From: an uncultured bacterium
GTDB lineage: Bacteria; CAYJRR01
Reading direction: 5' to 3'
NCBI GenBank assembly: GCA_964372275.1
Contig: CAYJRR010000042.1
Coordinates: 1-33,785 of the forward strand
DNA: 33,785 nt
Below are positions 7,024 through 20,510 of this stretch, piece after piece (the first letter of the stretch is position 1; each line of letters starts with the position of its first letter). The notes under the pieces were generated by a model. It was not told the DNA's origin, made no database searches, and worked only from the letters and a program-made list of their open reading frames with translations. The position numbers were made by a program, and so were the translations under genes.

Positions 7024-7821
7024 TCACGTCCGGCGGCCCCCCGCGGGGTCGGCCACCTGCAGCACGTCGCGGAGCAGTTGCTCGTCGGAAAGGAAGCCCC
7101 ACGGCGGGATCTTGAAGCGCCGGCGCAGGTGGTCGGCGAGCCGGCGCATCAGGCGGCGGCGCGAGGTGATCTCCAGAAACTCCCGCCGTTCCCAGGCCTC
7201 CCGCGCCAGCTGCAGCTCCTCGGGGGCGATCTCGGCCCGTACCCGGGCGGCGAGCACGGCGTCCTCGGCGATCGTGTTGCCGGACTCGAACGCCGGGAGC
7301 GGGGAGCCGGCCGCGACCGGCTCGACCGTCTCGGTGGCGACGACGATCGTACCGGCCGCATGGTCCCCCAACCGCTTGTTCCGCGACGACAGAAGGAGGG
7401 TGAGCCCGCCGAGGGCGTAGAGGCCCGGGAGCGCGTCGGCCACGCGTACCAGGTTGCGCACCAGGCTGTCGCCGAAGGTGATCCCGGCGCCGTGGTCCTG
7501 CACCACGCGGATGCCGACCGCGCGTTTCCCCGGCGTCTGTCCGTTCCAGACCAGCTCGAAGAAGAGGAAGTAGCCGAACAGGATCGCGAAGACGCCGACG
7601 ATCAGGAGCGCCACCATCCCCGAGGAGAGCAGATCGCCGGCGCCGGGAAGGGCGATGCCGAACAGGAGCGCGGCGAACCCCAGGCCGCTGACCACGATCC
7701 CGATCAGGAACGAGACGATCGCGTAGTCGATCGCCGCCGCGACGAGGCGGCTTGCAAATCCGGCGAGACGGAAGCCGAAGACGACGTTCTCCGGCGTGCG
7801 GATCTGGATCTCGCGGCGCAT
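7024..7821 (-). CDS. RDD family membrane protein
   Basis: TPENV...LAGFASRLVAAAID; GQTPGKRAVGIRVV; RNLVRVAD; KRLGDHAAGTIVV. Confidence 0.93.
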   Translation of the reverse strand: MRREIQIRTPENVVFGFRLAGFASRLVAAAIDYAIVSFLIGIVVSGLGFAALLFGIALPGAGDLLSSGMVALLIVGVFAILFGYFLFFELVWNGQTPGKRAVGIRVVQDHGAGITFGDSLVRNLVRVADALPGLYALGGLTLLLSSRNKRLGDHAAGTIVVATETVEPVAAGSPLPAFESGNTIAEDAVLAARVRAEIAPEELQLAREAWERREFLEITSRRRLMRRLADHLRRRFKIPPWGFLSDEQLLRDVLQVADPAGGRRT

Positions 7822-7844
7822 GCTAGGCTACGACGAAGAGGCCG

Positions 7845-8837
7845 ATGGTGACCCGCCGACGCTCGTTCGTCGAGGAGAAACGCCAGGACTGGCGGCGACT
7901 CGACGAGCTCTTGCGCGCCGTCGAGTCGAGGGGGCTGCGGTCGACCGGCGAAGAGGAGCTGCGCGAGGCGGTGCGACTCTACCGGAAGGCGACCTCCGAC
8001 CTGGCGCAGGCGCAGACCTTCGCGCGTGATCCGGAGGTGCTCGCGCTCCTCAACGGGCTGGTCGGCCGGGGACACGGCCTGCTCTACCGAACGCCGCCGC
8101 TGCGGGTCCGCTCGGCCGTGGAGTTCCTCTGGCGGGGGTTCCCGGAGCGGGTGCGGCGTCACCGAAAGGGGGTCGCGGCCGCGGCGGCGATCCTGTTCGG
8201 GACGATGGCGTTCGGCTTCCTCCTCGTCACGGTCGACTTCGAAGCGCGGGATTTCCTCCTGCCCGACGGCTTCCGGGCGATCGAGAAGTCGCTCGCGGAG
8301 CAGGATCGCTGGGCGGCGGAGCTGACCCCGGAGGTCGCCCCCGCGGCGTCGGCGTGGATCCTGACCAACAACATCCGCGTCGCATTGCTCGCCTTCGCCG
8401 GCGGGATTTTTTTCGGTTTCGGAGCGGTGGTGGTGCTCGCCTACAACGGCCTGATGATCGGCGCGGTGATGGGGACGATCCACCACTACGGGAAGCTGAC
8501 GATGCTCGTCGCCTTCATGGTCCCGCACGGAGTGATCGAGCTGACCTGCATCTGCATCGCCGGTGCGGCCGGGATGGCGCTGGGTTCCGGACTGATCTCC
8601 CCGGGTGAGCGCTCCGTCCGCGACGCGCTGGTGGAGCGGGGGCGTGACGCCGCGCTGCTCGCGCTGGGAACGGCGCCGCTCCTGGTCGTCGCCGGCGCGA
8701 TCGAGGGATTCATTTCGCCACTTCCGATCCCGCCGATGGCGGCCGGCTTGTTCGCGCTCCTTCCCGCGTCCGCACTGGCGTGGTACTTGCTCCGGAATAC
8801 CGGGGATGGCCTTTGGTCCGGTCGTTTGACCCGATAG
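7845..8837 (+). CDS. SpoIIM (DUF95) family membrane protein
   Basis: LYRKATSDLA...LNGLVGRGH; ILTNNIRVA; YNGLMIG; PHGVIELT; AGAIEGFISP. Confidence 0.92.
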   Translation: MVTRRRSFVEEKRQDWRRLDELLRAVESRGLRSTGEEELREAVRLYRKATSDLAQAQTFARDPEVLALLNGLVGRGHGLLYRTPPLRVRSAVEFLWRGFPERVRRHRKGVAAAAAILFGTMAFGFLLVTVDFEARDFLLPDGFRAIEKSLAEQDRWAAELTPEVAPAASAWILTNNIRVALLAFAGGIFFGFGAVVVLAYNGLMIGAVMGTIHHYGKLTMLVAFMVPHGVIELTCICIAGAAGMALGSGLISPGERSVRDALVERGRDAALLALGTAPLLVVAGAIEGFISPLPIPPMAAGLFALLPASALAWYLLRNTGDGLWSGRLTR

Positions 8838-8865
8838 GGAACTACGGCGTACGGTCCCTTCTTCC

Positions 8866-9372
8866 ATGCGCTGGCGACTGATCGATCGCATCGACGACAT
8901 CGTCCCCGGGAAGCGGGCGGCCGGCGCCAAGGCGGTCACCCTCGCCGAGGACTACTTCGAGGACCATTTCCCCCGGTTTCCGGTCGTTCCGGGCGTACTG
9001 GTGATCGAGGCGTTGGCGCAGTTGTCGGGGAAGCTGATCGAGCTGACGGTGTGGGAGGAGCGGGGGATCTGGCCCTTCCCGGTGCTCTCGATGGTGCGCA
9101 ACGCGAAGTTCCGCAAGTTCATCCGGCCGGGCGATCAGATCCGTCTCGAGACGGAGCTCGCCGAGTCGCGCGACGAAAGCGCGGTGACCCGCGCCAAGGC
9201 GCGCGTCGACGGCAAGACGGTGACCGAAGCCGAGCTGCTCTTCGTCTTCGACCCCGAAGGGCTGGCCGACAGCCTCGACCAGCGTGCGCTCAAGGAGATC
9301 GAGACGCAGGCGTTGAAGGTCCTGTGGCCCGGATTCGCGGCGTGGGCCGACGCCTCGAAGAGGGGGCTGTAG
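8866..9372 (+). CDS. 3-hydroxyacyl-ACP dehydratase, FabZ-like
   Basis: LIDRI; FEDHFPRFPVVPGVLVIEALAQ (His/Glu dyad); AKFRKFIRPGD; extra C-terminal helix. Confidence 0.9.
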   Translation: MRWRLIDRIDDIVPGKRAAGAKAVTLAEDYFEDHFPRFPVVPGVLVIEALAQLSGKLIELTVWEERGIWPFPVLSMVRNAKFRKFIRPGDQIRLETELAESRDESAVTRAKARVDGKTVTEAELLFVFDPEGLADSLDQRALKEIETQALKVLWPGFAAWADASKRGL

Positions 9373-9378
9373 GCTCCC

Positions 9379-10707
9379 GTGCGGTCGGGTCGCCGGCCGG
9401 TCGCGATCACCGGGCTCGGGGCGGTGACGCCGCTCGGGTTGGACGTGCCGTCGACGTGGGCCGGCTGCCGCCGCGGCGAATCGGGAGTGCGGCGCATCTC
9501 GCTGTTCGACGCCAGCGGCTTCGCCACCCGGATCGCCGGCGAAGTGCCGGGGTTCGATCCGCGGATCCACCTCTCCGACGAATCGTGCCCGCCGCGGCTG
9601 CGGAAGTACCTCGATCGGAAGGCGGCCTTCGCCCTGCGCGCGGCGCACGAGGCGTTGCGGCAGGCGGGGATTCGCCCCGGATCGGTCGACCCCGCGCGGT
9701 TCGGAGTGTCGGTCGGGACCGAGGCCGGCCGGCCGCTGCTGGAGGAGATCGCCACGCGATTCGTCGAGACCCGGGCGGTCCGCGCTTCACGCTCCTCCGG
9801 GGATCTCCCCGGACCCCTGGCGGCGGTCGATCTTGCCGAGGCGTTGGAGGCGCTCGATCCGATCGCGCTGGTGCGGGAGGCGGCGAATCTGCCGGCGTCG
9901 CTCCTGGCGCGGATCCACGGCGCGAAGGGGGCGAACGCGACCGTTTCGACGGCCTGCACGTCCAGCGCGCAGTCGGTCGGCGAGGCGTTCGACCGCATCC
10001 GACGTGGAGAGGCCGACGTGATGCTGGCCGGGGGCTGCGACGCGCTGGTCGAGGCGTTCATGGTGACCGGCTTCGGACTGTTAGGCGCCCTGTCCACCCG
10101 GAACGACGAGCCGGCGCGCGCGAGCCGGCCGTTCGACCTCCACCGCGACGGCTTCGTCCTCGCGGAAGGGGCCGGATTCGTGGTGCTCGAGGCGCTGGAG
10201 CACGCCCGCGCCCGAGGGGCAAAGGCCCTCGCCGAGCTGGCGGGGTTCGGCGCCTCGTGCAACGCCTATCGCATCACCGACAGCCCACCGGACGGCCGTG
10301 GCGCCTACCTTTCGATGCGCTTCGCGCTGGCCGACGCGGGGATCGATCCCGCCGAGGTCGGCTACGTCAACGCGCACGGCACCTCGACCCAGCAGAACGA
10401 CGTCTCGGAGACCAACGGTCTGAAGCGCCTCTTCGGCGACCGGGCGACGACCGTCCCGGTCTCCTCGACCAAGTCGATGATGGGGCACCTGGTCGCCGCC
10501 TGCGGAGCGGTGGAGCTGGTGGTCTGCGTGCGGGCGATGCTCGACCGGGTCCTGCCGCCGACGATCAATCTCGAGGCCGCCGATCCGAGCTGCGACCTCG
10601 ACTACGTGCCGAACGTCGCGCGACCGGCCGGGTTCGACGTCGCCGTGACCAACGCCTTCGGATTCGGCGGGAGCAACGGGACGCTCGCGATCCGGCGAAT
10701 CCCATGA
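9379..10707 (+). CDS. Beta-ketoacyl-ACP synthase (FabF-like), catalytically intact (KS-A)
   Basis: Cys-His-His triad: STACTSS, NAHGTST, KSMMGHL; NAFGFGGSN. Confidence 0.93.
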   Translation: MRSGRRPVAITGLGAVTPLGLDVPSTWAGCRRGESGVRRISLFDASGFATRIAGEVPGFDPRIHLSDESCPPRLRKYLDRKAAFALRAAHEALRQAGIRPGSVDPARFGVSVGTEAGRPLLEEIATRFVETRAVRASRSSGDLPGPLAAVDLAEALEALDPIALVREAANLPASLLARIHGAKGANATVSTACTSSAQSVGEAFDRIRRGEADVMLAGGCDALVEAFMVTGFGLLGALSTRNDEPARASRPFDLHRDGFVLAEGAGFVVLEALEHARARGAKALAELAGFGASCNAYRITDSPPDGRGAYLSMRFALADAGIDPAEVGYVNAHGTSTQQNDVSETNGLKRLFGDRATTVPVSSTKSMMGHLVAACGAVELVVCVRAMLDRVLPPTINLEAADPSCDLDYVPNVARPAGFDVAVTNAFGFGGSNGTLAIRRIP

Positions 10708-11807
10708 AGGCGGTGATCTCCGGGGTCGGGCTGGTGAGCGCCGCCGGAAGCGGGACGACCCCGTTCCACGGCGCGCTTCGCGCGGGCGTTCCGCTCGCGC
10801 GGCCGATCGATCGGTTCGACGCGTCGACCTTTCCGGTCCCGCTCGCGGGCGAGGTCCCGGGCCTCGACGCCCGTCGACTCGCGCGGGCGCCGAAGGAGGC
10901 GAAGCTGCTGGCGCGGGCGTCGGTCCTCGCGCTCGGCGCGCTCGCCGACCTGGAGCGCGCCTGCCCGGCGCCGTGGGGCTGCGATCCGTGGCGGACCGGC
11001 CTGTTCCTGGGGGTCGGACTGGAGCAGGGAGCGATCGACGACGTCGTCCCGTCGATCGCGGCCAGCGCGCGGGGCGGGCGGATCGACGACCGGCTCCTGG
11101 CGTCGGACGGGATGCCGGCGCTTCATCCGCTGGCCTCGCTCAAGACGCTGCCGAACATGGCGCTGGGGACGATCGCCATGCGTCTCGGAGATCGTGCCCC
11201 CCGCGGAATGAACGCCGCCTACGCGCCGTTCGACGCGGCCGCGGTCGAGGCGGTCGAGGGGGCGGTCGCGGCGCTGGACGACGGCGATGTCGAGGTGGCG
11301 CTCGCGGGCGGGGTCGACGCTCCCGTCTCGCCGATGGGGTTGTTGACCTTTCATCGGCTCGGCGTGACCCGTCCGCTCGGAGAGGCGGCGGCCCTGTTCC
11401 TGGTCGAAACGGCGGCGGGGGCCGCGGCGGGCGGGAGACCGGTCCTGGCGGAGATCGCCGGAATCGGCCGGGCCTCCGACGACGCGGTGCCGGGGAGGCC
11501 GCGCGCGACCGGCGCGGTCGGGGCGTTGGCGGCGGCGCTCGACCGTGCCGGGCGGACGGGCTCGGCGATCGACGCGGCCGTCGTTTCGGGGGCCGCCGAC
11601 GCGCAGGCGTTGGAGTCGGTCGGGATCCGGACCGACCGGCGCGTCGAGCCGGCGGCGATCGTCGGCGAGTGCGCCGCGGCGGGGGGCGCCGTCGGGATCG
11701 CGGCGGCGCTCGCGCTCCTGGCCGACGGCGCCTCCCGGGTCGTGGTCGGCGCGGCCGCGTTCGGCGGCGCCTACGGAGCGATCGTCCTCGAGAGGCCGGG
11801 CTCGTGA
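10704..11807 (+). CDS. Degenerate ketosynthase / chain-length-factor-like subunit
   Basis: From ATG 10704 (ATGA overlap): MKAVISGVGLVS...; Cys position reads YAPFDAAA; both His lost (VVSGAA, IVGECAA); GEAAALFLVE; AFGG. Confidence 0.8.
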   Translation: MKAVISGVGLVSAAGSGTTPFHGALRAGVPLARPIDRFDASTFPVPLAGEVPGLDARRLARAPKEAKLLARASVLALGALADLERACPAPWGCDPWRTGLFLGVGLEQGAIDDVVPSIAASARGGRIDDRLLASDGMPALHPLASLKTLPNMALGTIAMRLGDRAPRGMNAAYAPFDAAAVEAVEGAVAALDDGDVEVALAGGVDAPVSPMGLLTFHRLGVTRPLGEAAALFLVETAAGAAAGGRPVLAEIAGIGRASDDAVPGRPRATGAVGALAAALDRAGRTGSAIDAAVVSGAADAQALESVGIRTDRRVEPAAIVGECAAAGGAVGIAAALALLADGASRVVVGAAAFGGAYGAIVLERPGS

Positions 11808-13156
11808 ACCGCGCGGCGTCGACGCGAGGAGGTCCACGCGAAGGCCGCTCGCCGCGGCGCGTGGTCGTCACCGGAGTCGGGCTCGTCACCCCGTGCGGAG
11901 GGACGCTCGCGGCGGTCGGCGAGGCGGCGTGCGCCGGGCGTTCGGCGGCCGCGACGATCGCCTCGTTCGACGCCGGCGCGTTTCCGACCCGCTTCGCGGC
12001 GCAAGTGCCGCCGCCCGACCGCGCCGCCGCCGCGGCCGACCCCGACGGAGGAGAGCTCGCCGCAGCGGGCGATTGGAAGGGGGCGTTCGGCGTCCTGGCG
12101 GCGCGGCGCGCGATCGCGCACAGCCGATGGATCGCCGGGAGCGCCCTTCCGCCGGAGCGCGTGGGGCTCTTCCTTGGAACCGGTCTCTCCTCGCTTTCGA
12201 TCGCGGAGCTGGAGGAGGAGGTCCTTCCCTACCTGGCGGCCAGCGCCGGGATCGATCTTCGCCGGATGGGGGCGGAGGCCGGGTCTCACCCGGGCTCCCC
12301 CTTGCCGTGGCGGCACCTGACCGACCGCGTGAACCGGATCGTCGCGCGCCTGGCCGGGGCGGCGGGGGGCTCGGCGAGCCACTTCGGGGCCTGCGCGGCG
12401 TCGACGCAGGCGATCGGCGAGGCCTTCCGCCGCGTGCGGGACGGTTCGCTCGACGCGGCGCTGGCGGGGGGGATGGATTCGATGGTCCATCCGTTCGGGA
12501 TGATCTCGTTCATGCTCCTGGGGGCGCTTTCGACGAAGAACGAGCGTCCGGCGGAAGGGTGCCGTCCGTTCCACCGCGGCCGGGACGGGTTCCTCCTCGG
12601 GGAGGGGGCGGCGGTATTCGTGATCGAGGAGCGCGGCGCCGCCCTCGCGCGCGGCGCGACGATCCACGGGGAGCTCCGGGGGTACGGCGCGAGCCTCGAC
12701 GGGTATCATGTCACCGCGCCGCGTCCCGACGGGGCCGGCGCGCGCGCGGCGATGGAACGCGCGCTCGAGGACGCGGGGGTGCGTCCGGAGGAGATCGGCT
12801 ACGTGAACGCGCACGGAACGGGGACCGAGCTCAACGACCCGGCGGAGGCGGCGGCGGTGCGGGCGGTGTTCGGGAGAAAGGCGGCGGCGCTCCCGATCTC
12901 GTCGGTGAAGCCGGTGGTCGGGCACCTGGTGGCGGCCGCCGGCGCGATCGAGACGGCGGTCTGCCTCGCCGCGTTCGCGCTCGACCGGCTGCCGCCGACG
13001 GCCAACCTCGACGCGGCCTCGGTCGATCCGGATTGCGGCGGACTGGGGCACCTCTTCGAAGCGCGCCCGGGCTGCCCGGAGATCGTCATGACCAACAACT
13101 ATGGATTTGGTGGACAAAACGCGTCGCTGGTCCTGGCGAAGGGGGCGGCGCGATGA
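11804..13156 (+). CDS. Beta-ketoacyl-ACP synthase (FabF-like), catalytically intact (KS-B)
   Basis: GTG 11804 (GTGA overlap); RRVVVTGVG; FGACAAS, NAHGTGT, KPVVGHL; NNYGFGGQN. Confidence 0.92.
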   Translation: MNRAASTRGGPREGRSPRRVVVTGVGLVTPCGGTLAAVGEAACAGRSAAATIASFDAGAFPTRFAAQVPPPDRAAAAADPDGGELAAAGDWKGAFGVLAARRAIAHSRWIAGSALPPERVGLFLGTGLSSLSIAELEEEVLPYLAASAGIDLRRMGAEAGSHPGSPLPWRHLTDRVNRIVARLAGAAGGSASHFGACAASTQAIGEAFRRVRDGSLDAALAGGMDSMVHPFGMISFMLLGALSTKNERPAEGCRPFHRGRDGFLLGEGAAVFVIEERGAALARGATIHGELRGYGASLDGYHVTAPRPDGAGARAAMERALEDAGVRPEEIGYVNAHGTGTELNDPAEAAAVRAVFGRKAAALPISSVKPVVGHLVAAAGAIETAVCLAAFALDRLPPTANLDAASVDPDCGGLGHLFEARPGCPEIVMTNNYGFGGQNASLVLAKGAAR

Positions 13157-14079
13157 GGGCGTTCGTCTTCCCGGGGCAGGGCTCGCAGTACGTCGGGATG
13201 GGAAGAGGACTGGCCGAGCGTCATCCGGTCGCGCGGCGCACCTTCGAGGAGGCCGACGAAGCGCTCGGCGAGTCGTTGTCCACCTTGATCTTCGAGGGAC
13301 CGCTGGAGCGGCTCACCCTTACCGAGAACAACCAGCCGGCGATCCTCACCGTCAGCATCGCCTATTGGCGCGTGCTGCGCGAAGCGAAAGGTGAGTCGCT
13401 CGACGTGGGGGTCGTCGCCGGTCACTCGCTCGGGGAGTACTCGGCGCTGGTCGCGGCCGGGAGCCTCGACTTCCCGGAAGCGGTCCGCCTGGTGCGGGCC
13501 CGGGGGCGGTTCATGAGCGAGGCGGTCCCGGCGGGGGAGGGGACGATGGCGGCGATCCTCGGGCTCGACGCGGAACGCCTCGAGGGGCTCTGCCGCGAGG
13601 CGTGCGCCGGCGAGGAGGTGGTCGAGCCGGCGGGCTACAACTGCCCGGGCCAGATCGTCGTCGCCGGACACGTGCCGGCGGTGGAGCGTCTGATGCGGCG
13701 GGCGGAGGAGGCCGGCGGGAAGGCGATCGCGCTCACCGTGAGCGGCCCGTTCCACTCCCGCCCCTTGAAGCCGGCGGGGGACCGCCTGCGCGAGGCGCTC
13801 GCCCGCATCGGCTTCCGCGAGCCCATCGTCCCCTACGTTCCGAACGTCACCGCCGAGCCGACGCGCGATGCCGCGTCGATCGCGAGGTTGCTTACGGAGC
13901 AGGTCTACCGTCCGGTCCGCTGGGAGCCGTCGATGCGGGCGATGATCGCCCTCGGCGCGGGGGAGTTCGTCGAGGTCGGTCCGGGGCGGGTGCTCGTCGG
14001 ATTCGTGAAGAAGATCGACCGGAAGTTCCCCTGCCTGGCGGCGGACGACGAAGCGGCGTTCGCGCGCCTGGTGGGATAG
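13153..14079 (+). CDS. fabD: Malonyl-CoA:ACP transacylase
   Basis: MRAFVFPGQGSQ; QPAIL; GHSLGEY; SGPFHS; EVGPGRVL. Confidence 0.95.
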   Translation: MRAFVFPGQGSQYVGMGRGLAERHPVARRTFEEADEALGESLSTLIFEGPLERLTLTENNQPAILTVSIAYWRVLREAKGESLDVGVVAGHSLGEYSALVAAGSLDFPEAVRLVRARGRFMSEAVPAGEGTMAAILGLDAERLEGLCREACAGEEVVEPAGYNCPGQIVVAGHVPAVERLMRRAEEAGGKAIALTVSGPFHSRPLKPAGDRLREALARIGFREPIVPYVPNVTAEPTRDAASIARLLTEQVYRPVRWEPSMRAMIALGAGEFVEVGPGRVLVGFVKKIDRKFPCLAADDEAAFARLVG

Positions 14080-14097
14080 GTCTCGAAGGGAACGCTC

Positions 14098-15378
14098 GTG
14101 GGACGCCGCGTCGTCATCACCGGGATCGGGATGGTCACGCCGCTCGGAGTCGGGGCGGAGGAGACCTGGTCCCGCCTGCTCGAAGGGGCATGCGGGTTGG
14201 GCCCGATCGACCGTTTCGAAGCCGCCGGCCTTCCGGTGACGGTGGGGGGCGAGATCCGCGGCTTCCGCGCCCGGGAGTACGTCGACGGACCGAAGAGCCT
14301 GAAGGTGATGACGCCGATGGTGCAGTACGGGATCGGTGCGGTGAAGATGGCGATCGACGCCGCGCGCCTGCTTCCCGAGGTCGATCCGGAGCGGTTCGGC
14401 ATCGCCACCGGCGCCGGACAACCGACCGGGGAACCGGAGATGCTGCTGCCGGCGATCGAGGCGTCGGTCGACGCCGGCGGCCGCTTTTCGCTGCGGACGT
14501 TCGGAGAGGTGGGGGTTCAGGCGATCAATCCGCTCTGGCTCCTGCGCGGCCTGTCGAACAACGTGCTCGGGTTCGCGTCGGCGCAGTTCAACGCCCAGGG
14601 GTGGAACACCAATCTCTCCAACTCCGGGGCGAGCGGCCTGAACGCCGTCGGCGATGCGGCGCACGCCATCGCCAGCGACCGCGTCGACGTCGTCGTCGCC
14701 GGCGGCTACGACGCGCTCGTCTCGCCGGAGTCGATTCTCCGATACGCCCGCCTGGGGCTGCTGACCTCCTCCAGCGCGGCCGGGGCGGAGGCGAGCCGCC
14801 CCTTCGACCGCCGGCGGGACGGGTTCGTCCCCGCGGACGGCGCCGCCTTCCTGGTGCTGGAGGCGGCCGACCACGCCCACGCGCGCGGCGCGCCTCCGAT
14901 CGCGGAGGTGTTGGGCTACGCGGCGACCAACGACGCCTACCGGGTGCTCGACCCGGCGCCCGACGGGGAGGGTCTCTCGCGCGCGATGCGTGACGCGTTG
15001 GCCGACGCCGGGCTCGTGCCGGGCGACGTCCGCGCCGTCTTCGCCCACGGGACCAGCAACCCGCGCTACGACCGCGCCGAGACGTTGGCGATCCGGGCCG
15101 CGCTGGGGGGGACGGCGGCGAAGGTAGCGGTGCCGGCGATCAAGGGGGCCCTGGGCCATCCGGTCGCCGCCTCGGCGGCGATCGCCGCGGCGGCGGCGGC
15201 GCTGGCGGTGCGCGACGGCTGCGTGCCGCCGACGCTCCATCTGCGGGAGCGCGATCCGGAGTGCGATCTCGACCACGTGATCGAGGGCCGCCGGGCGATC
15301 AAGACGACGGCGGTGGTCGTCAACGCCAGCGGTCTCGGCGGACAGAACGCGGCGCTGGTTCTCGGCGAGCCGGCGTGA
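14098..15378 (+). CDS. FabF-like ketosynthase homologue lacking the catalytic Cys (CLF-like or decarboxylase)
   Basis: Full-length KS fold; Cys position reads LSNSGASG; His motifs kept (FAHGTSN, KGALGHP); SGLGGQN. Confidence 0.85.
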   Translation: MGRRVVITGIGMVTPLGVGAEETWSRLLEGACGLGPIDRFEAAGLPVTVGGEIRGFRAREYVDGPKSLKVMTPMVQYGIGAVKMAIDAARLLPEVDPERFGIATGAGQPTGEPEMLLPAIEASVDAGGRFSLRTFGEVGVQAINPLWLLRGLSNNVLGFASAQFNAQGWNTNLSNSGASGLNAVGDAAHAIASDRVDVVVAGGYDALVSPESILRYARLGLLTSSSAAGAEASRPFDRRRDGFVPADGAAFLVLEAADHAHARGAPPIAEVLGYAATNDAYRVLDPAPDGEGLSRAMRDALADAGLVPGDVRAVFAHGTSNPRYDRAETLAIRAALGGTAAKVAVPAIKGALGHPVAASAAIAAAAAALAVRDGCVPPTLHLRERDPECDLDHVIEGRRAIKTTAVVVNASGLGGQNAALVLGEPA

Positions 15379-15413
15379 CGGCCGGAACGGACGGCGTTGG
15401 AGTCGGAGGGACG

Positions 15414-16172
15414 ATGGGACGTTTGGCAGGAAAGGTGGTTCTCGTCACCGGCGGGTCGCGCGGGATCGGCAGGGCCGTCGCCCGGGAGGCGGGTCGCGAA
15501 GGGGCGCGGGTCGCTCTCAGCTTTCGCGAGAAGGAGGAGGACGCGGAGGCGGTGGTGCGCGAGATCGCGTCCGGCGCCGTTCCGGGGAGCGGAGGCGAGG
15601 CGGCCGCCTTCCGCGCCGATCTGGCCCGGCCGGAGGCCGCCTCCGAGCTGGTCGACGCGGTGCTGCAACGCTTCGGGGCGATCGACGCGCTGGTGAACAA
15701 CGCGGGGATCGTCCGGGACGGCCTGGTCGCGGCGATGGAGGACGGCGACTGGGAGGAGGTGCTGCGGGTGAACGCCGGCGGCGTCTTCCGGATGTGCCGC
15801 GCCGTGGCGATGCCGATGATGCGCGCCAAGCGCGGGCGGATCGTCAACCTCTCGTCGGTCGCCGCGACGAAGCCCGGCCGCGGGCAGGCGAACTACGCCG
15901 CGAGCAAGGGGGCGATCGAAGCGCTCACCCGCGCGCTCGCGATCGAGCTCGCGCCGAAGGGGATCGCGGTGAACGCCGTCGCCCCCGGCGTCATCGAGAC
16001 CGAGATGACCGCCTTCGTGCGCGGCGCCGCGCCGGAGGAGGTCTTGGCGCACATCCCGTTCAAGCGCTACGGCTCGGCCGACGAGGTCGCGCGGGCCGTC
16101 CTGTTCCTGGCGAGCGACGAGGCGTCCTACATCACCGGCGCCGTCCTTCCGGTCGACGGCGGCTTCCGTTAG
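15414..16172 (+). CDS. fabG: 3-oxoacyl-ACP reductase (FabG-like SDR)
   Basis: TGGSRGIG; VNNAGIVRD; GQANYAASK; NAVAPG; GGAGGG RBS before ATG 15414. Confidence 0.9.
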   Translation: MGRLAGKVVLVTGGSRGIGRAVAREAGREGARVALSFREKEEDAEAVVREIASGAVPGSGGEAAAFRADLARPEAASELVDAVLQRFGAIDALVNNAGIVRDGLVAAMEDGDWEEVLRVNAGGVFRMCRAVAMPMMRAKRGRIVNLSSVAATKPGRGQANYAASKGAIEALTRALAIELAPKGIAVNAVAPGVIETEMTAFVRGAAPEEVLAHIPFKRYGSADEVARAVLFLASDEASYITGAVLPVDGGFR

Positions 16173-16948
16173 GCCAGGATCGAGTAGCCGCCGTCCAACG
16201 TGATCGTCTGGCCGTGGATCATCGAGGCCTTGGCGGAGACGAGGAACTCGGCGACGTCGGCGACGTCCTCGGGGGTGGTCAGGCGACCCATCGGGGTGCG
16301 CGCTTTGGAGACGGCGAGCAGCGCCTCCTTGTTCGGAAAGTGCTCCAGCGCGCCGGTCTCGACCAGGCCGGGGGCGATGGCGTTGACGGTGATCCCTTTC
16401 GGCCCCAGCTCCATCGCCAGCGCCCGGACGCTGGCCTCCAGCGCCGCCTTGGAGGCGCCGATCGCGCCGTAGAGCGGGATCGCCCGGGCCCCGCCCAACG
16501 ACGAGAGGGCGAGGATCCTCGACCCCGCCGGCATCGCGGGCGCGAGCGCGTTGGAGAGCAGCAGGAAGGCGCGCGCGTTGATCCCGACCGTCCAATCCCA
16601 GTGCTTGGCGGTCAGCTCCGTTGCCGCCTTCAGCACCCCCGAGGCGGCGTTGCTGACGAACAGGTCGAGCGAGCTCCAGGCGGCGAGGAGCTCGTCGGCG
16701 ATCCGCTTGCAGTCGGCCGCCTCGGCGAGGTTCCCCCGCAGCACGCGCGGCTCCTTCCCGCCGACGGCGCGGATCCGGTCGGCGGTGGCGTCGGCCTCGG
16801 CGTGGTTGGAGAAGTAGCTGAAGGCCACCTCCGCGCCGAGCAGCGCGAATCGGACGCACAGCGCCCGGCCGATCCCCCCGCTCCCCCCGGTGACGAAGGC
16901 CCTCTTTCCGTCGAGGAACCCGAGTCGCGAAGTTGGAGGAGGCGCCAT
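16169..16948 (-). CDS. fabL: Enoyl-ACP reductase, FabL type
   Basis: TGGSGGIG; SNAASGVLK...HWDWTVGINARA (FabL signature NAASGV..HWDWT); YGAIGASK (Yx6K); ALEHFPN. Confidence 0.85.
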   Translation of the reverse strand: MAPPPTSRLGFLDGKRAFVTGGSGGIGRALCVRFALLGAEVAFSYFSNHAEADATADRIRAVGGKEPRVLRGNLAEAADCKRIADELLAAWSSLDLFVSNAASGVLKAATELTAKHWDWTVGINARAFLLLSNALAPAMPAGSRILALSSLGGARAIPLYGAIGASKAALEASVRALAMELGPKGITVNAIAPGLVETGALEHFPNKEALLAVSKARTPMGRLTTPEDVADVAEFLVSAKASMIHGQTITLDGGYSILA

Positions 16949-17006
16949 CGGGGCCGGAAGACTAGCACGGTTACCGCCCTACCCAGGGTGCGTGGGTTTC
17001 GCCGCG

Positions 17007-17036
17007 TTGACCCTCCGTCGGGGCGGGCGGTATCGT
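17007..17036 (+). promoter_or_regulatory. Putative sigma70 promoter of the ACP gene, probably leaderless
   Basis: TTGACC (17007-17012), 18 bp, TATCGT (17031-17036), then ATG 6 nt later with no SD. Confidence 0.55.
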
Positions 17037-17042
17037 GGAAAC

Positions 17043-17510
17043 ATGTCCGCCCGTTCGGGCTCCATCGGGCCACTCCCCGAACCCCTGTCCTCCCCGCTTC
17101 CGGCGCCGGTTCCGGCGGTGTTCGACAAGGTGCGCGAGGCGTTCGCCGAGGCGCTCGGGGTCGAGGTGGACGAGGTGACGCTCAAGGCCCGGGTGATCGA
17201 CGATCTCGGAGCGGAGAGCCTCGACTTCCTGGACATCGCCTACCGGCTGGAGCAGACGTTCAAGGTCAAGATCCCGCGCGGCGAGATCAAACAGAAAAGC
17301 CAAGAAGGACTCGATCCGACCGAATGGGAGAAGGACGGGCTCCTCACCGAGAAGGCGCTCTCCAAGATCCGCGAAGTGATGCCGGAGGTCGACCCGGCCG
17401 CGGTCCAACCGGGGCTGCGCGCCAAGGACATCCCCCGGCTGTTCACGGTCGAGACCTTCTACCGGATCGTGGTGAAGCTCGTCGAAGAGAGGTCGGCCTC
17501 CGCGAGATGA
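17043..17510 (+). CDS. Acyl carrier protein, long variant with internal insertion (alternative start GTG 17118)
   Basis: VFDKVREAFAEALG...IDDLGAESLDFLDIAYRLEQTFKVKIP, then about 55 extra residues, then LFTVETF. Confidence 0.88.
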   Translation: MSARSGSIGPLPEPLSSPLPAPVPAVFDKVREAFAEALGVEVDEVTLKARVIDDLGAESLDFLDIAYRLEQTFKVKIPRGEIKQKSQEGLDPTEWEKDGLLTEKALSKIREVMPEVDPAAVQPGLRAKDIPRLFTVETFYRIVVKLVEERSASAR

Positions 17511-17848
17511 TCCACGGCGTCGGGGTCGACCTCGTCGATCGCGCCCGTTTCCGCCGCTTCGCGCGCGATCACCGCCGGAGGCTCCGCGGGATCTTCACCC
17601 GCGCGGAGCGCGGGAACCGGCGGCTGGCCGAGGCGTTCTCGTTGAAGGAGGCGACGCTCAAGGCGCTCGGCGGGCTGTCGGGGTTCGAGGTCCGTTGGCG
17701 CGAGATCGAGACCATGGGCCGCGGCGGCCGCGTGCGTCTGGCCGGATCGGTGCGTGCCCACGCCGAGACGTTGGGGGTGCGGTCGGTCCATGGTGCCCTG
17801 GTTCGGCAGCGGGATGCCGTTCTGGCGATGGTGATCGCCGCCGCCTGA
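17507..17848 (+). CDS. acpS: Holo-ACP synthase (AcpS-type phosphopantetheinyl transferase)
   Basis: MIHGVGVDLV...IFTRAE...FSLKEATLKALG; ATGA overlap with the ACP stop. Confidence 0.88.
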   Translation: MIHGVGVDLVDRARFRRFARDHRRRLRGIFTRAERGNRRLAEAFSLKEATLKALGGLSGFEVRWREIETMGRGGRVRLAGSVRAHAETLGVRSVHGALVRQRDAVLAMVIAAA

Positions 17849-17866
17849 GGCAACGGGATCGAACCG

Positions 17867-18910
17867 ATGCGATTCGGTTTCGTCGTCCATCCGCTGAACC
17901 CGGTGCAGCGCGGCCTGGTCGCCGTTCGCACGCTCTCCCCGGCGGCGATCGCCGGAAACGGCGGCGCCGGAGGTCGGGTCGCGACCTTTCACGCGGTGCG
18001 ATCGGCGTGCGGCGCGGAGACGGCCGGTTGCGTTCGCGCGGTTCCGATGCTTCCGGAGGCGATGCTCCGCGAGCAACAGGAGGCCGTCGAGCGCGTGGCC
18101 GTCGCGGTGCGCGCGCTCGCCGAATTCGACCGGGCCGACGTCGTGGGCCTGGGATCGCTGTGCGCGGTGGTGGGACTTCGCGGGGAGGAGGTCGCCAGGC
18201 GCTCGCCGGTGCCGGTGACGACCGGCTCGTCGTTCACCGCCTTCGCGGCGGTGCGCACGCTGGAGCGCACCGCGGCGGCGCTCGGCGAGCGCCTGCACGG
18301 GTCGACGGTGGCGGTGGCGGGCCATCCGGGCGCGTTGGCGGAGGGGATCGGGCGGCTCCTCGCGGCCCGGGGCGCGGACGTCGTCCCGATCGACGGACCG
18401 CGCCGGGGGACGATACCGGCGCCCGACCCCGCCGAGGCGGTGAGGCGGGCCGACTTCGTGGTCGGCGCCTCCTCCACCGGAGACGCGATCGATCCGGCGT
18501 GGCTCGTCCCCGGCTCGGTGGTCGTCGACGTGGCGGAGCCGCGCGACCTGCGCGGGCGGACGCCGGCCGAGGTGCTGGTCGTCGACGGCGAAAACGTCAC
18601 CGCCCCGCCGGACGCCTTCGCCGGAGGCCCCTTCACCCGTCTCTACTCGTTTGTCGTCGGCCACCGGGGCGGAACGGTCTACGCCTGCTTCGCCGAACCG
18701 GTCGTCCTGGCGCTGGAGCGTGAGGCGACCCCTTATTCTCTCGGGCGCACGATCGACGTCGAACGATCGGAGCGGATCGGGCGGCTGGCCGAGCGGCATG
18801 GATTCGTGGTCGACCGGCTGTTGCGCCACGGCCGCCGGGTCGCGCAGGCGTCGATCGACCGGGTCGCCGCGCGCCGCCGATCTGCTACGCTTCGCGAAGG
18901 TTCGCCATGA
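17867..18910 (+). CDS. Acyl-ACP-reductase-like NAD(P)-dependent oxidoreductase (COG5322-like)
   Basis: FGFVVHP; VGLGSL; VTTGSSFT; Rossmann VAVAGHPGALA; VVDVAEPRD; YACFAE (matches the FACFAE catalytic-Cys motif of cyanobacterial acyl-ACP reductase); RHGF. Confidence 0.72.
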   Translation: MRFGFVVHPLNPVQRGLVAVRTLSPAAIAGNGGAGGRVATFHAVRSACGAETAGCVRAVPMLPEAMLREQQEAVERVAVAVRALAEFDRADVVGLGSLCAVVGLRGEEVARRSPVPVTTGSSFTAFAAVRTLERTAAALGERLHGSTVAVAGHPGALAEGIGRLLAARGADVVPIDGPRRGTIPAPDPAEAVRRADFVVGASSTGDAIDPAWLVPGSVVVDVAEPRDLRGRTPAEVLVVDGENVTAPPDAFAGGPFTRLYSFVVGHRGGTVYACFAEPVVLALEREATPYSLGRTIDVERSERIGRLAERHGFVVDRLLRHGRRVAQASIDRVAARRRSATLREGSP

Positions 18911-19485
18911 AACCGCCGCCGGTGAAGGTCGAAGTCGCGGGTCTCCGGATCGATCCGGTGACCAACATGCCGGTCCTGATCTTGGAGGCGCCCGAGACCG
19001 GCGAGCGCCTGCCGGTGTGGATCGGACTGGTGGAGGCGTCGGCGATCGCCACCCGCCTCGAACGGATCGAAACGCCGCGGCCGATGACCCATGATCTTCT
19101 GAAGAACGCGCTCGACGCCACCGGGGCGGCGGTCGTCCGGGTGGAGGTCTCCGAGGTGCGAGGCGACACCTTCCTGGCGGTGGTGGAGCTCGAGGTCGCC
19201 GGACGGAGGGTCGTCGTCGATTCCCGGCCCTCCGACGCCGTCGCGCTCGCGCTGCGCGCCGAGGCGCCGATCTTCATCGCCCGGGCGGTGCTGGAGGCGG
19301 CGAAGGGGACCTCGTTGGCGGCGTGGCCGGTCGCGTCGAGTCCGGTCGACGAACCCCCCGCGCCGGGGTGGTAATCGCTGGAACGACTCCGGGCGCAGGT
19401 GGCCACCGGGGAGCGGCCGGCCGCCGACTGGCTCGAGCTGCTGAAGAGCCTCTCCCCGGAGGACTTCGGCAAGTTCAAGATGTGA
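18907..19485 (+). pseudogene. DUF151 bifunctional nuclease family gene, interrupted by an in-frame TAA at 19372-19374 (nonsense allele or sequence error)
   Basis: PVLIL...LPVWIG..EA..IA...PRPMTHDL...DSRPSDAVALALR; the same frame continues past TAA as SLERLRAQVATGERPAADWLELLKSLSPEDFGKFKM* to TGA 19483-19485. Confidence 0.75.
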
Positions 19486-20012
19486 CCGTGGACGATCCGC
19501 GCCTCCGCCACTTCCGCGGCAAGAGCCCCGTCCTCGGCGACGGGGTCTATCTCGATCCGTCCGCCCAGGTGATCGGCGACGTCGTCCTCGGGGGACGGTC
19601 GAGCGTCTGGATGAACGCGGTGGTGCGCGGCGATGTCCACCCGGTTCGGATCGGGGATCGCACCAACGTCCAGGACTTAAGCCTGGTGCACGTCACCGGC
19701 GGACGGCACGCGACGTTCGTCGGAAACGACGTGACGATCGGCCACCACGTGACGCTGCACGGCTGCCGCATCGGCGATCGGGTGCTGGTCGGCATCGGCG
19801 CGATCGTCCTCGACGGCGTCGAGGTCGGCGACGACACGATCGTCGCGGCGGCGTCGCTCCTCCCGCCGGGCAAGCGCTTTCCGCCCGGGGTGCTGCTGCG
19901 GGGCAGCCCGGCCGCGGTGGTGCGGGATCTCACGCCGGAGGAGCGCGCATCGCTCCGGGCCTCCGCCGAACGGTACGTCGCCTACGCCGACGAGTATCGC
20001 CGCGGAACGTGA
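19482..20012 (+). CDS. Gamma carbonic anhydrase family protein (YrdA/PaaY-like)
   Basis: Hexapeptide repeats; VIGDV, VRGD, NVQD..VH, TIGHHVTLHGC; GTG 19482 overlaps the upstream TGA. Confidence 0.93.
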   Translation: MTVDDPRLRHFRGKSPVLGDGVYLDPSAQVIGDVVLGGRSSVWMNAVVRGDVHPVRIGDRTNVQDLSLVHVTGGRHATFVGNDVTIGHHVTLHGCRIGDRVLVGIGAIVLDGVEVGDDTIVAAASLLPPGKRFPPGVLLRGSPAAVVRDLTPEERASLRASAERYVAYADEYRRGT

Positions 20013-20497
20013 TAGGGTCCGGATTGAAGGTGGGGAAGATCAAGACGCTTCGGGCGAGCTCCTGCTTCCGGGGATTCGAGCCCCGCGAGCTGGCTCTGGT
20101 CGCGTCGCTCCTCGAGGAACGGGAGCTGTTGCCGGGGGAACGCTTCCTCGACGAGGGATCGTCGACCGAGGGCTTGAGCCTCGTGGCCGCGGGGTCGATC
20201 GACCTCCGGACCCGATTGCCGTCGGGGGGCGAGTCGGCGCGGATGGCGATCGGCCCCGGTCGCTCCTTCGGAGAGCTCGCGCTGCTGGGTCGCGGTGGCG
20301 GGGGGGACGGCGGGGGGTTCGTCTCGGCCGCGGCCGGCGGCGAAGGGGCGCGACTCCTGACGTTGCGACCGGAGGCGTTCGACCGCCTGACCCGCGTCGA
20401 TTCCAAGGCCGCGGCCAAGCTGCTCCGGAACCTGCTGGCCGAGTTTGGGCGGGTGGCCCGGGACGCGGCGGAGCCGCTCAAGAAGCTTCTGGGGTAG
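20009..20497 (+). CDS. Stand-alone cyclic-nucleotide-binding domain protein
   Basis: FRGF...EL...PGERFLDEG...LSLVAAG...GPGRSFGELALL; no HTH domain. Confidence 0.8.
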   Translation: MIGSGLKVGKIKTLRASSCFRGFEPRELALVASLLEERELLPGERFLDEGSSTEGLSLVAAGSIDLRTRLPSGGESARMAIGPGRSFGELALLGRGGGGDGGGFVSAAAGGEGARLLTLRPEAFDRLTRVDSKAAAKLLRNLLAEFGRVARDAAEPLKKLLG

Positions 20498-20510
20498 GGG
20501 ACGTGAGCCG

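Follow-up and report, generated by a model that had tools for sequence, protein, structure and literature searches.

A conserved cluster of four ketosynthase genes, a long ACP and a thioester reductase in uncultured myxobacteria-type bacteria

Gene content of the locus

We analysed a stretch of 33,785 nucleotides from an uncultured bacterium (contig CAYJRR010000042.1 of assembly GCA_964372275.1), hereafter the window, in which eleven clustered genes span four ketosynthase (KS) paralogues, a long ACP and a thioester reductase (Table 1). An initial annotation made from the sequence alone had proposed these genes; all eleven were found at their positions by Pfam and NCBIfam matches, and the 4-base stop/start overlaps it described (ATGA or GTGA) can be read directly at 10704, 11804, 13153, 15375, 17507 and 18907. 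Its list of missing genes likewise stands for the 33 window ORFs scanned, which were picked by ORF list and third-position GC and have no Pfam domain of the FabH, thioesterase, cyclase, glycosyltransferase or acyl-CoA ligase type. The cluster of four KS genes, long ACP and thioester reductase is real, conserved and hitherto unstudied, and its hosts are uncultured myxobacteria-type bacteria. Searches of libraries and literature gave no characterised cluster that the system matched, consistent with the earlier statement that no known product could be assigned; nor did that literature yield a published description of a four-KS/long-ACP/reductase cluster.

Table 1. Features of the cluster, with positions in the window.
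Feature	Position	Strand	Description
FabZ-like 3-hydroxyacyl-ACP dehydratase	8866..9372	+	Pfam FabA-like domain, E 1e-22
KS-A	9379..10707	+	FabF-like, predicted active; Cys-His-Lys-His intact
Dead KS (CLF-like partner)	10704..11807	+	Cys to Asp, both His gone, internal deletions, shortened
KS-B	11804..13156	+	Second predicted active ketosynthase; Cys-His-Lys-His intact; Pfam KS N- and C-domains
FabD malonyl-CoA:ACP transacylase	13153..14079	+	Passes TIGR00128 (324 bits, cut-off 260.9)
KS-C	14098..15378	+	Full-length; Gly replaces Cys; His, Lys, His kept; Pfam KS N- and C-domains
FabG-like 3-oxoacyl-ACP reductase	15375..16172	+	NF009466 subfamily 242 bits (cut-off 222); TIGR01830 268 (cut-off 298)
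FabL-like enoyl-ACP reductase	16169..16948	-	NF005975 FabL 272 bits (cut-off 328); convergent with FabG
Sigma-70-like promoter match	17007..17036	+	TTGACC-18-TATCGT; just 5' of ACP start; consensus match only
Specialised long ACP	17043..17510	+	Pfam PP-binding; 155 aa; insert of ~45-50 aa before last helix
AcpS-type holo-ACP synthase	17507..17848	+	Pfam ACPS 30.7 bits (cut-off 25); NF000832 65 (cut-off 107)
AAR/PigE-N-family NAD(P)H thioester reductase	17867..18910	+	347 aa; predicted to convert acyl-ACP to aldehyde

The FabZ, FabG, FabL, ACP and AcpS proteins each score above their own Pfam domain cut-off and below the NCBIfam equivalog cut-offs. For the FabZ-like protein, two fabZ NCBIfam models fall under cut-off (114 against 155, and 108 against 113); it carries a family-specific C-terminal tail of ~35 aa, which the genome's other FabZ lacks, and the motifs DHFP..PV.PGV (His) and E(A/S)(L/M)AQ (Glu), which we take to hold the catalytic residues, are retained in 13/13 family members. 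The FabG-like gene, a second genome copy, may start at GTG 15375, within its GTGA overlap, or at ATG 15414. The promoter-like match ahead of the ACP gene is the sole one of its form in 7500-20600, a region for which shuffled sequences average 0.2.

Two ketosynthases retain the condensing residues and two do not

Alignment of the KS proteins to the genome's own FabF upheld the active-site calls of the initial annotation: the condensing set (Cys-His-His triad plus Lys) is complete in KS-A and KS-B, has its Cys replaced in KS-C and is lost altogether in the dead KS. KS-A and KS-B each keep their catalytic residues in 13/13 orthologues, and all 12 dead-KS orthologues are without the catalytic set. 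The seven full-length KS-C orthologues uniformly lack the Cys (Gly in 5, Ala in 1, Pro in 1) and retain His-Lys-His; seven more are half-size and have lost every catalytic residue. KS-C may be a malonyl-ACP decarboxylase or an inert partner, and decarboxylative priming by KS-C would not be general to the family, given the seven loci in which it is half-size and without His-Lys-His.

None of the four passes the fabF equivalog TIGR03150 (cut-off 493.75 bits; KS-A 446, KS-B 345, KS-C 343, dead KS 78), and KS-A alone passes the NCBIfam PRK07314 subfamily model (442.6 bits, cut-off 387); the dead KS has a Pfam match to the KS N-domain only, at 52 bits. In the phylogeny each of the four KS types has a clade of its own, supported at 98 or more, and at 99 for KS-A, for KS-B and for the single clade uniting all 14 KS-C sequences. 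Within each clade, loci L111-L115 and L117-L123 (where present) form separate supported subclades, and this recurrence in all four clades indicates that the four KS genes evolved as a unit.

The dead KS starts in an ATGA overlap with the KS-A stop, and KS-B in turn starts in a GTGA overlap; in four relatives (L111-L114), dead KS and KS-B are a single ORF. Pairing is therefore ambiguous, as four loci have the dead KS joined to KS-B and others have it overlapping KS-A. It is plausible, as proposed at the outset, that two KS/CLF pairs act in sequence.

The long ACP and its neighbouring reductase

The long ACP called by the initial annotation kept its domain assignment and lost part of its length: the likely start, chosen from the family alignment, is ATG 17043, giving 155 aa in place of 206. 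The protein scores 54 bits against the ACP NCBIfam equivalog (cut-off 71), and the Ser of its GAESLD motif is invariant across 28 sequences. In its AF2 model (pLDDT 89), ACP chains superpose on residues ~21-148 with only ~75-95 residues aligned. The top Foldseek matches of the model are 2kw2 and 3lmo (E 3.3e-4), which correspond to the AcpXL protein RPA2022; the AcpXL VIA Z scores of 11.4/10.8 are tied with 12.4 for ordinary ACPs, and this fold hint is not significant. Relatives of the long ACP number 3097 at E<=1e-8, and the taxon-labelled ones among the matches listed (n=5) are from Myxococcales or Bradymonadia. The gene lies directly 5' of the reductase gene in 10 split and 8 contiguous loci.

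The reductase belongs to the AAR/PigE N-domain family. It scores 212 bits against the PigE model NF053554 (cut-off 850), matching PigE residues 47-358 only and having no aminotransferase domain, and 57.4 bits in two stretches against the AAR model TIGR04058 (cut-off 449.7); the profile of its family matches PigE 4ppm over residues 1-357 (E 1e-79) and cyanobacterial AAR 6jzq over positions 35-332 (E 6e-34). Cys274, presumably equivalent to the AAR nucleophile, is invariant in 29 sequences, as are Gly152 and Gly155. The PigE N-domain reportedly acts as a reductase taking a thioester to an aldehyde (PMC8341465). No match to the aldehyde-deformylating oxygenase PF11266 was detected in the 94.6%-complete genome, for which a Synechococcus control was positive, and no aldehyde-using enzyme linked to the cluster was found. 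The view of the locus as a distinct KS-rich system apart from the canonical kind, with a long ACP of its own and a reductase of the aldehyde-forming type, is supported.

Conservation of the cluster in Myxococcota

The core FabZ-KSA-KSdead-KSB-KSC together with the long ACP-reductase pair recurs in genomes labelled or sampled as Myxococcota. The conserved core has seven parts: the tailed FabZ, KS-A, KS-B, the dead KS, KS-C, the insert-bearing ACP and the AAR/PigE-N-type reductase. It is contiguous in 8 related genomes (9 with the window) and split over two places in 5. Individual loci depart from it, with FabZ and KS-A absent within the 19 kb examined around L119 and no dead-KS match at L120. 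The remaining genes of the window are variable: FabG occurs in 5/13 related loci, FabD in 6/13, and FabL and AcpS in 0/13. The dedicated full reduction set proposed by the initial annotation thus does not extend to the family, whose conserved parts exclude FabG, FabL, FabD and AcpS, and the conserved core does not reveal the degree of reduction.

The ACP-reductase pair lies away from the KS block in at least 10 loci, raising the possibility that the two are independent modules, adjacent here by chance, with the pair acting on housekeeping-FAS chains. In 10 loci the pair indeed stands alone, its neighbours being rny, ybeY, phoH and a response regulator gene, and no KS gene lies closer than 10 kb; moreover, Bacillota and Chloroflexota have reductase homologues without any KS, and a dead-KS match is absent from 19 of the 46 reductase-positive Myxococcota genomes. 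However, at least 8 of these 19 reductase-only matches are weak (E 1e-16 to 1e-21), lie in 690-800-aa frames and probably represent another subfamily. Furthermore, the KS block was found elsewhere in 5/5 of the split genomes checked, each time in the order FabZ-KSA-KSdead-KSB-(FabD)-KSC and in 4/5 with FabG, and the modules are contiguous in nine genomes, the window included, across two different architectures. Among 301 Myxococcota genomes sampled, a dead-KS-like protein occurs in 35 and the reductase in 46, with both in 27, such that 27/35 dead-KS-positive genomes have the reductase; the Fisher p for co-occurrence (2e-19, n=301) is overstated because the sampled genomes are related. We consider two chance neighbours improbable, and treat the KS block and the ACP-reductase pair below as one system.

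The flanks of related loci hold the housekeeping genes rpoZ, dapF, ftsY, ybeY, phoH and rny, and no conserved aminotransferase, exporter, tailoring enzyme or regulator was found beside the cluster in the loci examined. A Ser/Thr kinase gene lies within the cluster in 4/4 related loci scanned, and the kinase-type loci (L117-L123, n=7) carry neither a KR nor an ER of their own.

Relationship to primary fatty-acid synthesis

The initial annotation had described the cluster as self-contained, a view that the genome context does not bear out. In this genome, which is 94.6% complete, no fabD outside the window reaches cut-off and no further AcpS-type PPTase was found, and the strongest ER candidate likewise lies in the window. 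Its FabD gene is also the only stand-alone copy found, the two other fabD matches lying inside ORFs of 2124 aa and 3652 aa on one contig (C7); similarly, in 4/5 relatives checked the cluster fabD is the sole match outside a giant ORF. The AcpS gene is the genome's only TIGR00516 match, and the sole other PF01648 match adjoins a PKS on the same C7 contig. The FabL-like gene is the genome's best match to both ER models, FabL (272 bits) and FabI (121 bits), each time below cut-off, and no FabK-like enoyl reductase matched at cut-off in the 94.6%-complete genome; by these scores it is the best candidate for the genome's ER. As the genome's only or best copies, FabD, AcpS and the FabL-like protein look to be shared with primary fatty-acid synthesis, and the cluster appears interlocked with that synthesis. 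The position of the sole fabD inside the operon, here and in 4/5 relatives, further argues for constitutive expression.

Such dependence invites a simpler reading, namely a primary FAS operon whose extra FabF paralogues make ordinary fatty acids, the reductase being an unrelated neighbour. The initial annotation had named as the mark of ordinary fatty-acid synthesis a locus holding the genome's only fabD, fabF and acp genes; this is so for fabD, and other copies of fabF and acp lie elsewhere. Indeed, the separate canonical locus it had asked after exists as plsX-fabG-acpP(86 aa)-fabF, with fabH at another place (396 bits). Judged by their residues, two of the four KS proteins would be incapable of condensation; dead-KS-like matches are confined to 35/301 sampled Myxococcota, and the long ACP and reductase tend to occur in the same genomes as the KS set and to cluster with it. 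An operon for ordinary fatty acids is hence very improbable, even with the only fabD and AcpS-type PPTase in the window.

Proposed pathway and product

The probable role of the cluster is to assemble a special fatty chain on a dedicated ACP and to release it as an aldehyde; in this genome it also holds housekeeping fatty-acid genes. FabD would load malonate onto the specialised ACP, on which the ketosynthases and their inactive paralogues, as heterodimers, would elongate an acyl chain. The starter may come from ordinary fatty-acid synthesis or from malonyl-ACP decarboxylation by the Cys-less KS-C. Keto-reduction would fall to FabG, dehydration to the dedicated FabZ and enoyl-reduction to the FabL-like protein, after which the reductase would free the finished acyl-ACP as a fatty aldehyde. 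We infer a long, mostly reduced chain from these parts; it is probably long or very long and largely saturated, and may serve a constitutive membrane or envelope lipid. The reading that we lean towards, and hold to be fairly probable, is that the genes in the window represent one form of a lipid cluster, conserved in Myxococcota, that couples elongation on a dedicated ACP to aldehyde release and is interlocked with primary synthesis.

Comparison with known systems

In the koreenceine (kec) cluster, from Pseudomonas koreensis, the ACP stands alone, and two full and two partial KS are proposed to pair up as two heterodimers; a reductase of the COG5322/AAR type, joined in one protein to an aminotransferase, is proposed to free the ACP-bound chain as an aldehyde en route to a tetrahydropyridine alkaloid, and KecG and KecH are the pathway's own reductases (PMC6498172). 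By gene content, the window shows the same set: an ACP, a COG5322-type reductase and four KS, of which two are partial or inactive. However, the window has no aminotransferase, its FabZ is dedicated and tailed, and its ACP carries a large insert; one of its inactive partners is full-length with His-Lys-His kept; and FabZ, FabD and AcpS, all present here, are not named in the kec description so far as it is accessible (PMC6498172).

The equal parts list nonetheless speaks for a type II PKS-like pathway to a specialised metabolite, akin to those for koreenceine or aryl polyenes, in which two KS/CLF heterodimers would yield a chain that is short or unsaturated and whose aldehyde is aminated or cyclised by unlinked enzymes. 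The reductase resembles the PigE N-domain more closely than it does cyanobacterial AAR, its homologue in Tumebacillus (L028) adjoins a small ORF and a putative class III aminotransferase ORF (assigned by eye), and the seven kinase-type loci are without their own KR or ER. Yet the cluster is flanked by housekeeping genes rather than by conserved aminotransferase, exporter, tailoring or regulatory genes, and embeds the genome's only fabD. Moreover, FabF models give the three full-length KS proteins 343-446 bits, far above the 165-199 bits that they reach with the polyketide KS model PRK07103, and KS-A falls next to the FabF of the same genome, with weak support (82). Aryl-polyene clusters have specific genes, such as those for a thioesterase, a CoA ligase or ammonia lyase, an MMPL exporter and two short ACPs; the Pfam scan of 33 window ORFs found no such domain. 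On this evidence we judge a PKS-like pathway unlikely, and return to the lipid cluster.

The mycobacterial FAS-II operon fabD-acpM-kasA-kasB likewise combines fabD, a long ACP and two elongating KS under Ser/Thr-kinase regulation, and the kinase gene inside four related loci scanned here is a further likeness; in that operon, however, both Kas enzymes are active, and it has neither inactive partners nor reductive release. At the release step, the reductase shares a protein family with AAR (6jzq, 6jzu) and the PigE N-domain (4ppm; PMC8341465), keeping the Cys and the Gly-rich nucleotide motif. It differs in scoring far under the curated cut-offs, in having no fused aminotransferase, in a genome with no aldehyde-deformylating oxygenase match, and in its carrier, a dedicated insert-bearing ACP encoded next door.

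For elongation, the rhizobial very-long-chain cluster offers a likeness in its specialised ACP, dedicated FabZ and two FabF paralogues. It comprises the five genes acpXL-fabZXL-fabF1XL-fabF2XL-lpxXL, supplies a constitutive envelope lipid component and, by our reading, leans on housekeeping FabD, FabG and ER, none of which lies within the five (PMC5613085). There the acyltransferase LpxXL puts the chain on lipid A, whereas the window cluster ends in a thioester reductase, and no LpxXL-type acyltransferase domain was detected in the scanned ORFs of the window or related loci; four KS paralogues, of which two are non-condensing, further set the window cluster apart. As a tentative extension, possible but doubtful, some uncultured Myxococcota may, as a constitutive trait, produce a new class of envelope lipid from very-long-chain fatty aldehydes or derived alcohols or ethers, joining AcpXL-style elongation (special ACP, own FabZ, paired KS) to AAR-style release, tied to primary metabolism by a shared, operon-embedded fabD and, in one branch, under an embedded Ser/Thr kinase. 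The closest known logic is that of the kec and rhizobial acpXL clusters, and the cluster in the window is a member of neither.

Gene content and layout

The four-ketosynthase cluster of the window is real and conserved; it varies a known logic, that of type II FAS/PKS-like systems, and has so far gone undescribed. Because the window is ~71% G+C, open reading frames were chosen by third-position GC and then scanned against Pfam and NCBIfam, and every gene named in the initial annotation was found (see the table). The 4-bp stop/start overlaps that it had reported were likewise borne out, as ATGA or GTGA junctions at KS-A/dead KS, dead KS/KS-B, KS-B/FabD, KS-C/FabG and ACP/AcpS; here KS-A and KS-B are active FabF-like ketosynthases, the dead KS is a degenerate CLF-like paralogue, and KS-C is a ketosynthase without the active-site Cys. 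The same type of overlap (ATGA) couples the reductase stop to the start of the next gene downstream, which encodes a bifunctional-nuclease domain and is therefore probably co-transcribed with the reductase. This gene is not kept beside the reductase in relatives, where one BFN-like match lies 3.3 kb off in locus L071. Further along the window, a short radical-SAM gene is followed by queC, the two probably being the queuosine genes queE and queC.

Coordinates of the cluster genes and of other features discussed in the text (window positions, unless a related locus, L, is named)
Feature	Position	Strand	Basis
FabZ-like	8866-9372	+	Pfam/NCBIfam
KS-A	9379-10707	+	Pfam/NCBIfam
Degenerate (dead) KS	10704-11807	+	Pfam/NCBIfam
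KS-B	11804-13156	+	Pfam/NCBIfam
FabD	13153-14079	+	Pfam/NCBIfam
KS-C	14098-15378	+	Pfam/NCBIfam
FabG-like	15375-16172	+	Pfam/NCBIfam
FabL-like	16169-16948	-	Pfam/NCBIfam
ACP	17043-17510	+	Pfam/NCBIfam; start from family alignment
AcpS	17507-17848	+	Pfam/NCBIfam
AAR/PigE-N-type reductase	17867-18910	+	Pfam/NCBIfam
Bifunctional-nuclease-domain gene	18907-19374		
Short radical-SAM gene, then queC	28794-30159		
Dead-KS/KS-B fusion ORF	L111:8573-10744; L114:9516-11936		
Ser/Thr kinase gene	L117:7572-10133; L119:6882-9932; L121:8743-10650; L123:9433-12141		
Serpin gene	L118:8135-9478; L117:11382-11933 (fragment)		
Aminotransferase-like and SRPBCC-like ORFs before reductase homologue	L028:8295-11089		By eye

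Ketosynthases

Aligned to the genome's own FabF, KS-A and KS-B carry Cys-His-Lys-His, in agreement with the active-site calls first made from the sequence; KS-C has Gly in place of Cys and retains His, Lys and His, and the dead KS is shortened, with Asp in place of Cys and both His gone. Counted over the window and 13 related loci, the catalytic set is intact in KS-A (13/13) and KS-B (13/13). Full-length KS-C lacks the Cys in 7/7 (Gly in five, Ala in one, Pro in one), keeps His-Lys-His and has Leu at the FabF Phe position, and all catalytic residues are lost from a half-size form of KS-C (7/7) and from the dead KS (12/12). In a quick maximum-likelihood tree, KS-A, KS-B, KS-C (including the half-size form) and the dead KS form four clades, each with SH-aLRT of at least 98, and within every one of them the split-form loci L111-L115 and the kinase-type branch L117-L123 are supported subclades; the genome's own FabF adjoins KS-A with weak support (82).

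That two KS proteins form a dimer is textbook knowledge. From the gene order and the overlaps, KS-A may pair with the dead KS and KS-B with KS-C, and natural fusions suggest a possible pairing of the dead KS with KS-B: in L111-L114 these two make up one ORF of 723-798 aa, in which Pfam detects two KS N-domain stretches (L111 and L114), and the window has them as two genes that overlap at a GTGA.

Link to primary fatty-acid synthesis

The window is an entire contig (C42) of a 4.64-Mb genome (225 contigs, 94.6% complete), and the separate canonical fab locus that the initial annotation called for does exist elsewhere in that genome, as yceD-plsX-fabG-acpP(86 aa)-fabF-rpiB. That locus contains neither fabH nor fabD; fabH (396 bits) lies on contig C24, and the cluster itself has no FabH. 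For fabD, the window copy is the only one in the genome over the model's cut-off, and two other matches to the model sit inside 2124- and 3652-aa ORFs on contig C7. Similarly, the acpS model matches the window alone, the only other PPTase-superfamily match adjoining the C7 PKS. No gene in the genome exceeds the FabI cut-off, the best being the FabL-like gene of the window at 121 bits, nor does any FabK-like match reach its cut-off; a FabV search was uninformative, as its control matched nowhere. The initial annotation had taken the cluster to be self-contained; because FabD, AcpS and the FabL-like enzyme look like the cell's sole copies, it is instead interlocked with primary synthesis. The sole fabD lies within the operon here and in four of five relatives, and the cluster FabD appears to be the housekeeping copy. 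Together with the housekeeping genes that flank the cluster in relatives, this embedding argues that the product is a lipid made constitutively and not a secondary metabolite made under certain conditions.

The C7 locus (~20-40 kb; L002, L005, L011, L012) is type I PKS-like: it has giant ORFs and AT domains, along with a FabH-like gene and an Sfp-type PPTase.

FabZ, the long ACP and the reductase

The FabZ-like protein keeps its His and Glu motifs in 13/13 and bears an extra C-terminal tail that is conserved in the family and missing from the genome's other FabZ. As first read, the ACP ORF spans 206 aa from 16890 and runs into the start of the divergent FabL gene. ATG 17043 (155 aa) is the likely start, as indicated by the alignment of the family and by a sigma-70-like match at 17007-17036, the sole one in 7500-20600. 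The match ends 6 bases before this start codon, and with such a spacing the ACP-AcpS-reductase transcript may have no leader or only a very short one. The attachment Ser (GAESLD) is kept in 28/28, and the predicted structure is an ACP helical bundle (pLDDT 89). Solved ACPs cover model residues ~21-148 with only ~75-95 residues aligned, so an insert of ~45-50 residues is predicted before the last helix. The best Foldseek match of the model is the very-long-chain-specific AcpXL of Rhodopseudomonas (RPA2022, E 3.3e-4), but its VIA-align Z is tied with ordinary ACPs. At E<=1e-8, 3097 relatives of the family occur in public metagenomes; among the 120 listed, the five with a taxon label are Myxococcales or Bradymonadia, and one more is labelled 'bacterium' only.

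Close relatives of the reductase are few, with 52 matches, all metagenomic, the best at 58% identity. A profile built from 29 reductase relatives matches residues 1-357 of the PigE sequence 4ppm (E 1e-79) as well as cyanobacterial AAR structures (E 6e-34), and all 29 sequences share Cys274 and the Gly152/Gly155 motif. In its passages on PigE, PMC8341465 describes the N-domain as an AAR homologue that reduces a thioester to the aldehyde. An alkane pathway was rejected, since no aldehyde-deformylating oxygenase (ADO) was found in the genome. A polyketide-cyclase/START-type domain (525 aa) and a PlsY domain of the acyl-phosphate acyltransferase kind (603 aa) are the fusion partners seen in the distant reductase relatives P0050 and P0051.

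Relatives and distribution

A reductase scan with one genome per species gave 324 loci, 80 of which were kept. Those of highest identity (~34-40%) carry Myxococcales, Nannocystaceae, Bradymonadia, Myxococcota or unplaced 'bacterium' labels; the remainder are Chloroflexota and Bacillota. Immediately upstream of the reductase, 10 of the 80 loci have a long-ACP homologue (45-63% identity over ~125-170 aa); all ten bear Myxococcota-type labels or are unplaced, and none has a KS or FabD within 10 kb. Five of these ten genomes were searched further, and in all five the block FabZ-KSA-KSdead-KSB-(FabD)-KSC occurs elsewhere in the window's order, followed by FabG in four (L111 lacks FabD, L113 lacks FabG).

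Within a phylum sample of 301 genomes centred on a Myxococcales-labelled MAG, a dead-KS-like match (E<=1e-15) occurs in 35, the reductase in 46 and both in 27. The two lie at most 8 kb apart in eight of these genomes, whose loci proved contiguous when fetched. L116 has FabG and a full-length KS-C; KS-C is half-size (~250-274 aa) in L117-L123, and in 4/4 of these loci scanned a Ser/Thr kinase gene (635-1016 aa) separates the dead KS from KS-B. A dead-KS-like stretch opens the kinase ORF in L119, and FabZ and KS-A are missing from the 19 kb fetched; L120 has no dead-KS match. FabL and AcpS are absent from 13/13 related loci. The window unites the full-length four-KS form with the ACP-reductase pair, plus FabD, FabG, FabL and AcpS. 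No cultured carrier is among the loci listed. In L117 and L118, two kinase-type clusters that are closely related, KS-B and FabD are separated by a serpin gene.

Bacillota and Chloroflexota reductases tend to a different setting: dus, a 185-aa HTH-like gene, a 299-aa gene of unknown function, the reductase, greA and lysS. Over 77 loci, dus is a neighbour in 33, the 185- and 299-aa genes in 30 and 33, greA in 23 and lysS in 25, with coaX upstream in 19/77 and birA in 12/77; carriers are L021, L026, L027, L038 and ~30 other loci of anaerobic Bacillota. No KS or ACP was found in these neighbourhoods among the clustered loci, and as a guide to the product they yield no usable clue. In Tumebacillus avium (L028), an ORF resembling a class III aminotransferase and a small SRPBCC-like ORF precede the reductase homologue, an arrangement that would be PigE logic spread over separate genes.

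Putative pathway and its significance

The gene inventory, the state of each active site, and the conservation, clustering and co-occurrence of the genes are observed; from these we infer a route of loading, extension, processing and release. FabD would load the special ACP, on which KS-A and KS-B, each with a non-condensing paralogue, would extend the chain; every round would be processed by FabG and the ER together with the dedicated FabZ, and the reductase would release an aldehyde. KS-C, without Cys and with both His kept, could prime the chain by decarboxylating malonyl-ACP, an idea that draws on the behaviour of KS Cys mutants and KSQ. Since the half-size KS-C cannot decarboxylate, it is no less likely than KS-C priming that the cluster elongates a chain supplied by the housekeeping FAS.

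Should its product be a structural lipid, the cluster would represent a new biosynthetic route, in which paired active and inactive FabF-like ketosynthases are followed by reductive release, and could lead to a new lipid biomarker for the Myxococcota of aquatic and sediment habitats. It also offers a test case for the way in which chain length is set by inactive KS partners beyond classical polyketide systems, for the role of a putatively insert-bearing ACP, and for why an essential housekeeping fabD stays within an accessory operon.

Comparison with known systems

The literature searched held no description of the cluster, and the window enzymes fall mostly under curated equivalog cut-offs. 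A 2026 paper (PMC13488336), in the portion bearing on these genes, names six phyla, Myxococcota included, in which MAGs carry faar/ado annotations, the expressed ones being cyanobacterial only. Closest in logic, when compared by description, is the koreenceine cluster, for which the relevant section of PMC6498172 gives an ACP, two KS with two further partial KS, and an aminotransferase to which a COG5322 reductase domain is fused; the window cluster, in contrast, has no aminotransferase. The rhizobial acpXL-fabZXL-fabF1XL-fabF2XL-lpxXL cluster, as outlined in part of PMC5613085, also combines a special ACP with a FabZ of its own and two FabF, whereas the window cluster lacks LpxXL. The window cluster belongs to neither; it has four KS paralogues and a predicted insert-bearing ACP.
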